DNA of 63,245 nt, filler included, from Craspedostauros australis (lineage: Eukaryota), in NCBI GenBank assembly GCA_030167865.1. It is 17 parts of 17 records of this genome, joined end to end, with 100 filler letters (N's around TTAATTAATTAA, not from the genome) between each part and the next. Parts side by side here need not be neighbours in the genome. Positions count along the whole stretch, not along the records: positions 45,593 to 47,288 come from JALAGF010003766.1; 16 more parts are not named here. The stretch is one strand, 5' to 3'. Made by a program: the position numbers and the translations under genes. Shown here one piece after another: positions 45,493 to 47,288 of this stretch. Numbering within the stretch: the first letter of the stretch is position 1; every line of letters begins with the position of its first letter. Under the pieces are notes generated by a model. The model was not told the DNA's origin and searched no databases. It worked only from the letters and a program-made list of their open reading frames with translations.

Positions 45493-45613
45493 NNNNNNNN
45501 NNNNNNNNNNNNNNNNNNNNNNNNNNNNNNNNNNNNTTAATTAATTAANNNNNNNNNNNNNNNNNNNNNNNNNNNNNNNNNNNNNNNNNNNNACATCTAA
45601 GGGCATCACAGAC

Positions 45614-45822
45614 CTAAGGTATCGAGAGAAGGTCATTTATTATAACATTGGGTAGGATGAGGTGTGGAAGGGGAAAGGAGAGAAGCGTGAGATGAGAGAC
45701 TGGGCTCGTAAAGTCGATCATGCCAGCAATGGAATGCAAGGCATCCGAGTGATGGTGTACTATTGTGTACTGTAATTCAGAATCATGCATTCAGAATCAT
45801 GCATTCATGCATTCATGCTTAC
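45614..45822 (-). other. Spliceosomal-type intron in 18S rRNA (209 nt)
   Basis: TAACAG|GTAAGC...ATGACCTTCTCTCGATACCTTAG|GTCTGT. Confidence 0.93.
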
Positions 45823-45963
45823 CTGTTATTGCCCCTATCTTCCTGCATCTAATAGAATGCACGTCCCTCTAAGAAGTGTCACCCAATGAAGATTCATTCG
45901 GCACACTATTTAGCAGGCAGGGGTCTCGTTCGTTAACGGAATAAACCAGACAAATCACTTCAC

Positions 45964-46290
45964 CTGTTGTTCGTCGGAGGGGGGAGTGGAGTTTAGCATA
46001 CAGAGATTGTAGAGGGATAAAAGAAGGAGAGAGTTAGATCAGATGATTGTTTACTTCCATCGTGTCCTGACATCAAGAGATGTGCTAGACAAAAGGTCTC
46101 TCTGATCGTAAACTGAGCAACAAGAAGTTGCNNNNNNNNNNNNNNNNNNNNNNNNNNNNNNNNNNNNNNNNNNNNNNNNNNNNNNNNNNNNNNNNNNNNN
46201 NNNNNNNNNNNTTATGAGCAGAGCGGTAATATGATAATATTACCATATCGATTTCATATTGATTTCGAATAATGATGTGTATATACATAC
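45964..46290 (-). other. Spliceosomal-type intron in 18S rRNA (about 327 nt including an 80-N gap)
   Basis: TAGTTG|GTATGT...GCTAAACTCCACTCCCC...AACAACAG|GTGAAG. Confidence 0.9.
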
Positions 46291-46311
46291 CAACTAAGAA
46301 CGGCCATGCAC

Positions 46312-46534
46312 CTGTTGTGATAGTAGAGGATTAGGGGGTTCATGAGTTCGTATGGAATAGAATGGAATGAAAGATGGGGAGGAAGGAGCGAATGGGTGAG
46401 TTCATGGTTTCATTTCGAAAGAGATTCGCATCATTCCGAGCTGGAGATTGGGGGGGGGGTGCTCAACTATTCACTGTTCAGTGTCTAGTGTCTAGTGCCC
46501 AGTGCCCAGTGCCTAGTGTTCACTATTTACTTAC
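46312..46534 (-). other. Spliceosomal-type intron in 18S rRNA (223 nt)
   Basis: TTGGTG|GTAAGT...CCCTAATCCTCTACTATCACAACAG|GTGCAT, with a CTAAT branch-site match. Confidence 0.93.
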
Positions 46535-46592
46535 CACCAACCATAGAATCAAGAAAGAGCTCTCAATCTGTCAATCCTCACTATGTCTGGAC

Positions 46593-46787
46593 CTGAGGAG
46601 AGTTTTGTAAAAGTACGAAATGGATGTGTCGTGTCGGAGGAGGAGGGGGAGTTTGAAGGGTAATACAAGTGTCAGAATATGGTTCAAGGTCATGGATTGT
46701 TATTTCACCAACATGGAGGGTAAAGAGAACAAGCTGGCTGTATGCAGCTGCTGCAATGAATGTAATGTAAATGTAAATGTAACGTAC
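46593..46787 (-). other. Spliceosomal-type intron in 18S rRNA (195 nt)
   Basis: TTCCAG|GTACGT...ACTCTCCTCAG|GTCCAG. Confidence 0.92.
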
Positions 46788-46801
46788 CTGGAAAGTTTTC
46801 C

Positions 46802-46958
46802 CTGTTGGTGTAAGGAGAAGTTGAGTCGGAGGGAAGTTGTGGAAGAAATTAAGTGTGAGTGATACGCCATCGATCGTTTTGTCTCATAAATCAGAGTGTT
46901 TGTTTGTTCCTTCTTTAATTTCTAAAAAATAAAGATAATGTAGTGGAATCAAACTTAC
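46802..46958 (-). other. Spliceosomal-type intron in 18S rRNA (157 nt)
   Basis: AACACG|GTAAGT...CTCAACTTCTCCTTACACCAACAG|GGAAAA. Confidence 0.92.
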
Positions 46959-46992
46959 CGTGTTGAGTCAAATTAAGCCGCAAGCTCCACTC

Positions 46993-47194
46993 CTGTAAGA
47001 TGAAAGAGGAGGATGTGATGGGTCGATGAGCCAGTCAATGTAATGTGATGTAATGTAATGTAATGTCGTGGATAGGAAGAGAAAGGATTTTGTGAGATGA
47101 TGTGGTCGTCATGAATTTCATGGCGTGTCAGTATCAATCTCGAATACTGGTCGTCGTTGGCGTAGAAGCAGTTAAAGATGATGATGAAACGTAC
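46993..47194 (-). other. Spliceosomal-type intron in 18S rRNA (202 nt)
   Basis: CACCAG|GTACGT...TCCTCCTCTTTCATCTTACAG|GAGTGG. Confidence 0.93.
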
Positions 47195-47240
47195 CTGGTG
47201 GTGCCCTTCCGTCAATTTCTTTAAGTTTCAGCCTTGCGAC

Positions 47241-47288
47241 CTGTAATTGTAATCGTAGTAAATGGAGAGCCAAGAAGGAGGGAAAGAG
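47241..47288 (-). other. 3' end of a seventh 18S rRNA intron (truncated by the contig end)
   Basis: A pyrimidine tract ending ...TTACAATTACAG|GTCGCAAGG replaces the expected upstream GGGAGTATG. Confidence 0.85.

Follow-up and report, generated by a model that had tools for sequence, protein, structure and literature searches.

Seven spliceosomal-type introns in a 335-nt segment of the 18S ribosomal RNA gene on an unplaced scaffold from the assembly of the diatom Craspedostauros australis

Can a gene for 18S ribosomal RNA (rRNA) that is interrupted every few dozen nucleotides by GT..AG insertions be a working gene, freed of its insertions by the spliceosome? This question is raised by JALAGF010003766.1, a whole unplaced scaffold of 1696 nt with a segment of 18S rRNA-encoding DNA (rDNA) on its minus strand (45593..47288), in the assembly GCA_030167865.1 of the diatom Craspedostauros australis. 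Positions are those of the window, that is, the whole stretch of 63,245 nt that was analysed, in which the same artificial linker stands at each of the 16 joints between 17 contigs (44 N + TTAATTAATTAA + 44 N; at 2768-2867, 4298-4397, 7990-8089 and so on up to 61406-61505). Because such linkers bound the scaffold on both sides, it is not physically linked to its neighbours, a ZIP transporter gene included, and adjacency of genes within the 63-kb window is without biological meaning. The scaffold carries a fragment of the 3' major domain of 18S with seven introns of the U2 type, the same phenomenon as that on record for the Chaetocerotaceae and for Olifantiella. We consider it probable, at roughly two chances in three, that this is a genuine nuclear 18S copy of a diatom whose introns would be removed from the precursor (pre-rRNA) by the host spliceosome. 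The splice signals, the exactness of the junctions, the relatives and the constraint on the exons are observed; from them we infer transcription, splicing and use in the ribosome.

The boundaries were set by reading the minus strand together with a script. The segment comprises 335 nt of eukaryotic small-subunit (SSU) rRNA in 7 exons (46, 34, 14, 58, 21, 141 and 21 nt), split by 6 complete insertions of 157-327 nt and 1 partial one, which amounts to one insertion per 48 nt of exon. Read 5' to 3' along the minus strand, the scaffold begins within insertion I0 (47241..47288; 48 nt), which is cut by the scaffold end and is present as its 3' end only (..ATTACAG). There follow exon E1 (47195..47240; 46 nt, GTCGCAAGG..CACCAG), insertion I1 (46993..47194; 202 nt, GTACGT..TTACAG), exon E2 (46959..46992; 34 nt), insertion I2 (46802..46958; 157 nt, GTAAGT..AACAG) and the micro-exon E3 (46788..46801; 14 nt, GGAAAACTTTCCAG). 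Downstream of I3 (46593..46787; 195 nt, GTACGT..CTCAG) lie E4 (46535..46592; 58 nt), I4 (46312..46534; 223 nt, GTAAGT..AACAG) and E5 (46291..46311; 21 nt). I5 (45964..46290; GTATGT..AACAG) is nominally 327 nt long, 80 of them N, with the assembly gap at 46132-46211. The segment ends with E6 (45823..45963; 141 nt), which includes the variable V7 hairpin, I6 (45614..45822; 209 nt, GTAAGC..CTTAG) and E7 (45593..45613; 21 nt), cut by the other scaffold end. Junctions are called J0 to J6 after the insertion that they hold, J1 being that of E1 with E2.

E6 alone is matched by the Rfam model SSU_rRNA_eukarya (86.8 bits, E 2.6e-24, model positions 1294-1461). Rfam at the gathering threshold over the whole window gave 0 matches, so that the interrupted 18S was missed, and a search of the scaffold at E<=10 likewise left the SSU exons unreported. 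The latter result is attributed to a limit of Infernal, which accepts truncated matches at the ends of a stretch alone; the detection of complete intron models is unaffected.

The donor sequence GTA[ACT]G[TC] is found in all six complete insertions (GTACGT and GTAAGT twice each, GTATGT and GTAAGC once each), a YAG acceptor (CAG or TAG) in all seven insertions, and a pyrimidine share of 0.59-0.81 at positions -30 to -4 in every one of the seven. All junctions are G|G, and three of the seven are CAG|G. By donor, acceptor, pyrimidine tail and exact excision, the inserts thus carry the marks of spliceosomal introns of the U2-type GT-AG class. Self-splicing introns of groups I and II were considered and ruled out on the lack of a match to a ribozyme core in Rfam: the search of the whole scaffold at E<=10 returned no group I or II intron, its sole match being a long non-coding RNA at E 8.8, which is a chance match.

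The inserts have a GC content of 0.36-0.47, and five of the six complete ones contain short tandem arrays, among them (AATGT)x6 in I1, (AATGT/A)x6 in I3, (AGTGCCT)x5.6 in I4 and arrays of 8- and 14-nt units in I6. When all inserts were compared with one another, the only match was a 12-nt (ACATT)n microsatellite between I1 and I3, and no insert had a match outside the scaffold within the 63-kb window; on these comparisons the inserts are individually unrelated to each other. An introner-like repeated family was accordingly rejected within the 63 kb, the inserts being without mutual similarity and not repeated elsewhere in the window.

Two environmental sequences allowed the exons to be compared with relatives. 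A scan of metagenome contigs for the word across the E6/I6 junction followed by GTRNG matched one contig, L001. In order, this contig carries an 18S gene cut at its 5' end (Rfam 791 bits, model positions 854-1831), the first internal transcribed spacer (ITS1), a complete 5.8S gene (162 bits), ITS2 and the start of 28S (364 bits). Its 18S part contains four GT..AG insertions of 121, 115, 126 and 115 nt in about 980 nt; they lie at J3 (E3/E4), at J6 (E6/E7), after CAGAGGTG and right after TTAGAT, and the one at J6 has ends like those of I6 (GTAAGCAT..TTAG). Since L001 has an insertion right after TTAGAT, the final GT of E7 may either belong to the exon or open an eighth insertion. The 28S start of L001 (model positions 1-564) is without insertion, and its ITS2 has an (ATTTT)n microsatellite at 1975-2008.

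Aligned with the joined exons of L001, the joined exons of the window copy are gap-free and identical at 326 of 335 positions (97.3%, 9 mismatches), E1 being 100% identical. The genomic DNA of L001 is uninterrupted at J1 (E1/E2), J2 (E2/E3), J4 (E4/E5) and J5 (E5/E6), and exact restoration is therefore shown against a real gene. The second relative, L002, came from a scan of contigs of prokaryote genomes with the E1/I1 junction word. It is a diatom-type 18S (Rfam 1046.8 bits, model positions 1-1225) with a single insertion in 1225 nt, of 121 nt (GTATGT..AACAG), exactly at J1 and with none at J0, J2 or J3. L002 (1-2192, with about 876 nt of spacer upstream of the 18S) sits in a metagenome-assembled genome (MAG) labelled uncultured Cardiobacteriales, which is eukaryotic contamination of that bin. 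The exon sequence of the window copy itself we take to be diatom-like, in keeping with its near-identity to L001 and L002. A 24-nt word from the V7 hairpin of the window copy had 0 matches in the metagenome scan, and nothing was found in a scan of genome contigs with the diatom junction word or in two scans of viral contigs.

Six of the seven sites are thus uninterrupted in the genomic DNA of L001, L002 or both, and three of the seven are occupied in these relatives. The window, L001 and L002 are three independent sequences with insertions of the messenger RNA (mRNA) type at overlapping sets of sites, and the GT..AG form with GTAAGT-like donors holds for 10 of 10 complete inserts of the window and L001 together, and for the one of L002. 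The preliminary description of this DNA had reported the same anatomy of seven exons with six complete and one partial insertion, the same four donors, with YAG acceptors behind a pyrimidine tract, and the restoration of 18S by exact removal. It had also expected no match to group I or II models and had predicted that rRNA finders would miss the gene. All of these statements were borne out by the results above.

Sequence change in the window copy follows the division into exons and inserts. The exons diverge from L001 by 2.7%, with no indel in 335 nt, and inserts that share a site are near-random with respect to each other (I3 against the L001 insert Lb, z 1.2; I1 against the L002 insert, z 0.9); I6 against the L001 insert Lc reaches z 3.2, driven by the like ends. 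RNAalifold, run on E6 with two sequences, predicted 41 pairs, of which 0 are broken, and the paired changes comprise one compensatory change of U-A to C-G and one of G-C to G-U. Outside V7, the core of the window copy differs from L001 at four positions, which were compared with the Rfam consensus as shown for L001. Three of these differences are at variable or structure-compatible positions, falling on a variable linker base, on a variable hairpin-loop base and on a G.U pair that becomes A-U. The private bases of the window copy are a T in ACTTTCC, a T in GGTTTATTCC, those of the V7 hairpin, a T in GGTTGG, an A in GGTGAAG and a T in GGTTTATT; E3 has a private A>T at a conserved unpaired A. 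The conservation of the exons and the one compensatory change support function, and on balance we infer that the exons look like those of a working or recently working rRNA gene.

The working of such a gene can be envisaged as follows. The 18S gene would be transcribed as pre-rRNA with its introns included, and the host spliceosome would recognise the GTA[ACT]G[TC] donors, the pyrimidine-rich tails and the YAG acceptors. Each intron would then be cut out exactly, and exons down to the micro-exons of 14 and 21 nt would be joined into a normal 18S. The introns would drift fast, gaining micro- and minisatellites as the mRNA intron of this genome seems to have done, while the exons would be held by the constraint on rRNA.

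Spliceosomal introns in diatom 18S are not without precedent. Gaonkar et al. (2018; PMC6306197) describe them at 17 sites of 18S and at one site of 28S in Chaetocerotaceae; a single gene can hold as many as 11 inserts, of which 10 are spliceosomal, and is lengthened by them by at least 1829 bp. These introns are typically 96-199 bp long, follow the pattern GTDHNN ... YTRAC ... CT-rich ... YNHAG, and evolve much faster than the core. The same authors warn of bias in barcoding and assembly from such inserts, and name Olifantiella (Han et al. 2018) as the other diatom with such introns, which they class as spliceosomal. The Olifantiella precedent which the preliminary description had mentioned is thus real, whereas any claim to novelty falls to the 17 sites and up to 11 inserts per gene already described in PMC6306197. 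Our literature searches found no further report of spliceosomal introns in diatom rDNA beyond Chaetocerotaceae and Olifantiella. The earlier suggestion that the whole gene could carry dozens of introns was extrapolated from what is a known crowded zone and does not hold up against L001, with 4 in about 980 nt, and L002, with 1 in 1225 nt. The kind of gene is therefore already published for diatoms, and what is notable here is the local density, the exons of 14 and 21 nt and the longer, repeat-bearing introns.

The sites were compared by carrying the Chaetoceros tenuissimus numbering of Table 1 of PMC6306197 onto L001 and the window by way of the primers listed there as disrupted. The anchors Ch-690 (888-892), Ch-1055 (1257), Ch-1400 with V9f (1612-1616) and V9R (1760) all fit one offset. 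In this numbering the window sites lie at 1101 (about 1101|1102, I0), 1147 (1147|1148, I1), about 1181 (I2, empty in L001 and L002), 1195 (1195|1196, I3, occupied in L001 too), about 1253 (1253|1254, I4), 1274 (1274|1275, I5) and 1414/5 (1414|1415, I6, occupied in L001 too); J1 falls at nt 1143 in the own numbering of L002, which agrees. The published sites in this stretch are 1147, 1195, 1257, 1274 and 1414, plus site #10. The row for #10 is printed as 1011-1012, yet it is listed as disrupting Ch-1147F/R, the target of which lies at about 1096-1117. The printed position thus misfits that primer pair, and 1101-1102 was probably meant, with two digits transposed.

Five of the seven window sites then coincide with Chaetocerotaceae sites (#10, #11, #13, #15 and #16 of PMC6306197, the equation of J0 with #10 assuming the digit swap). 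The sixth, 1253, lies 4 nt from #14 (1257), and 1181 is absent from the site table of that paper. Three of the four L001 sites coincide with published ones, again on the digit-swap reading of the table. With all 27 G|G positions open to insertion, five or more of the seven sites would coincide with the six published ones by chance with a probability of 1.4e-3. Sites are thus apparently common to this pennate assembly, two environmental diatoms and the centric Chaetocerotaceae, and may have been re-used or inherited across diatoms.

The likeness to the Chaetocerotaceae extends to the nuclear diatom 18S as host gene, short non-coding inserts, GTDHNN donors (six of six here), CT-rich tails, the AG end and crowding (PMC6306197). 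In contrast, the window inserts are longer (157-327 against typically 96-199; two of six, of 157 and 195 nt, are in range), five of the six complete ones have tandem arrays, YNHAG fits four of the seven, and seven sites fall in 335 nt where the published table gives five at most for any taxon in this stretch. The Chaetocerotaceae are, moreover, centric, whereas the protein genes of the window are those of a raphid pennate, near Bacillariaceae. Olifantiella, a comparison that draws on citations of that work, is alike in having introns in diatom 18S and in their varying presence among copies or relatives, as among the window, L001 and L002.

Likenesses to other systems are more distant. Group I introns of nuclear rDNA likewise interrupt the conserved 18S core and are absent from the mature rRNA, whereas the window inserts are GT..AG, mutually unrelated, and without a conserved core or Rfam match. 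Introner elements share the gain of many introns in a short stretch and the G|G or AG|GT contexts; the window inserts, by contrast, have no mutual similarity beyond the 12-nt microsatellite, with nothing matching in the 63 kb. Spliceosomal introns are also reportedly present in the rDNA of mostly lichen-forming ascomycetes (said to have been described by Bhattacharya et al. in 2000). These are alike in being GT-AG introns placed ectopically in rRNA genes transcribed by RNA polymerase I (Pol I), and differ in belonging to another kingdom and in being few per gene, the one lichen intron tested having 57 bp against 157-327 nt here (PMC8527467). According to the same source, yeast correctly removed this lichen (Cladonia) spliceosomal intron from Pol I-transcribed 18S and 25S, with slower growth.

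The window itself looks like a bin of unplaced contigs, and its protein genes bear on the identity of the host. The nearest named proteins to an open reading frame (ORF) for dihydrouridine synthase are from Bacillariaceae, at 64-71% (Cylindrotheca, Pseudo-nitzschia, Nitzschia, Fragilariopsis and a Bacillariaceae MAG), with the best unnamed matches at 73%, and a protein atlas also indicates Bacillariophyta for the window protein. On these matches, the protein genes of the window are those of a raphid pennate diatom and not of Chaetoceros. The contig at 43663-45492 contains the C-terminal end of one ZIP transporter gene (profile positions 236-321) and the middle of a second (186-282). The second has an intron of 302 nt at 44890-45191 (GTACGC..ACAG), which joins ..LAI to AIHNFPEG; it was placed by continuity of the motif and is the only mRNA intron placed. 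Its GC content is 0.42 and it holds two tandem arrays, of 5- and 10-nt repeats, like the 18S inserts, while the coding contigs have a GC content of 0.50-0.555 and uninterrupted ORFs of up to 1536 codons. The GC content and the habit of tandem arrays would lend soft support to the scaffold belonging to the same genome.

The preliminary description had matched the 18S donors to those of mRNA introns in the same window. An intron in a ZIP gene was indeed placed, with the donor GTACGC and not the GTACGT that had been named, on a contig that is unlinked to the scaffold. The ABC-transporter and DUF1800 genes on which that comparison also drew could not be recovered, neither family being found among the 36 ORF translations scanned for families, from a total of 139 ORFs with a length of 120 aa or more. 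A search for further mRNA introns by joining ORFs yielded 4997 candidates, which showed no donor signal; its noise was too high for it to be used.

Two pairs of contigs in the window (27515-32042 with 32143-36667, and 47389-49426 with 49527-51561) match from end to end at 98.4% and 98.2% identity and are probably two haplotypes of one diploid diatom. Inverted identity of 100% between contig ends was seen for 1-1299 against 2868-4166, for 23771-25799 against 8090-10118, and for 47389-48400 and 49527-50538 against 51662-52673; these ends may reflect fold-backs in the assembly or genuine inverted repeats. A Beta_propel (PF09826) gene spans three consecutive ORFs at 47391-49426 and in the twin contig at 49527-51561, with an in-frame TGA at 47907-47909 and a change of frame near 48875, both shared by the two haplotype copies. 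A pseudogene, tiny introns that went unrecognised, or recoding could account for this.

Several observations weigh against a native 18S gene in use. The fourth core difference affects a highly conserved unpaired A, immediately ahead of the CCAGG helix, for which the window copy has another base. Judged by the Rfam consensus, the window copy has the derived state at all four core differences and L001 at none; as weak evidence, this may point to relaxed constraint or to sequencing error in a low-grade scaffold. The scaffold is tiny (1.7 kb), gapped and unplaced, and is tied to the pennate-diatom protein genes of the window by shared assembly membership alone. A search of public runs with 46212-47288, a query that spans E1 to E5 and stops short of the species-specific E6, listed 17 runs, none of which carries the scaffold; the word share was 0.06 in each, roughly the value to be expected from the conserved exon stretches by themselves. 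Within their last 60 nt, only three of the seven inserts have a strict YTRAY motif, as against the loose YTNAY in all seven. The derived changes and the poor state of the scaffold would be explained if the introns are real and the scaffold belongs to an rDNA copy (an orphan or a variant repeat) that is silent, in the minority or in decay, with ribosomes made from other copies that are less interrupted or intron-less. We consider this unlikely, though it must be taken seriously. The paper on Olifantiella sp. (Han et al. 2018, J Phycol 54:105) is said to state in its title a heterogeneity of intron presence and absence in 18S rDNA, a point taken from the title alone, which would fit such a copy. 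It would also be in line with the polymorphism of intron presence and absence described for Chaetocerotaceae between and within strains, intra-individual polymorphism included (PMC6306197). Against a silent copy stand the 0 indels in 335 nt, the 0 of 41 pairs broken in E6, the compensatory change and the saturation of the shared-site inserts between otherwise similar exons, and no flank of non-rDNA was seen on the scaffold. Arrays of rDNA, moreover, commonly end up as small unplaced scaffolds in any case.

That the scaffold comes from another diatom, as a contaminant or a co-cultured organism, in which case its introns would be uninformative on this genome, appears quite improbable. The 17 contigs binned in the window are unlinked, and the intron sites match those of the centric Chaetocerotaceae while the window protein is nearest to Bacillariaceae, at 64-71% to named matches. 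However, the GC content and tandem arrays of the inserts match those of the ZIP mRNA intron, the other contigs of the bin include haplotype pairs of one organism, and L001 and L002 are one base off the Chaetoceros-specific primer Ch-690F, at the 3' end of the primer, which argues weakly in the same direction. Removal of the inserts without a spliceosome, whether by degenerate self-splicing or by excision without ligation to give a fragmented SSU rRNA, would suit the normal state of rRNA as a Pol I product with group I introns, as well as the scarcity of strict branch-point motifs. It is nonetheless very improbable indeed, given the lack of any group I or II match, the GT..AG form of all ten window and L001 inserts and of the one in L002, and the implausibility of pieces of 14 and 21 nt as free rRNA fragments. 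A genuine diatom 18S copy with introns removed by the host spliceosome thus remains the reading that we prefer.

Spliceosomal introns in a Pol I transcript go against the textbook, and there has been little study of how they are removed while the ribosome is assembled, or at what cost. Seven introns in 335 nt, in an organism with a genome assembly, would make a strong natural test case if the copy is expressed. Such genes also escape rRNA finders and disrupt common 18S primer sites. The sites shared with distant diatoms bear on the choice between ancient inheritance and repeated insertion at proto-splice sites. Because five of the seven are those of the distantly related centric Chaetocerotaceae, it could be envisaged, as a tentative and rather doubtful proposal, that the scaffold represents working rDNA of a raphid pennate with very dense spliceosomal introns, the shared sites of which are either ancient relics or the product of site-specific re-insertion. 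In the first case the introns would be left over from an ancient, heavily intron-laden diatom rDNA; in the second, reverse splicing would have returned introns to the same exposed G|G positions of the rRNA. If this proposal is true, C. australis would be a sequenced organism offering direct tests of how the spliceosome is coupled to Pol I transcription and to the assembly of ribosomes, and of how introns originate at proto-splice sites.

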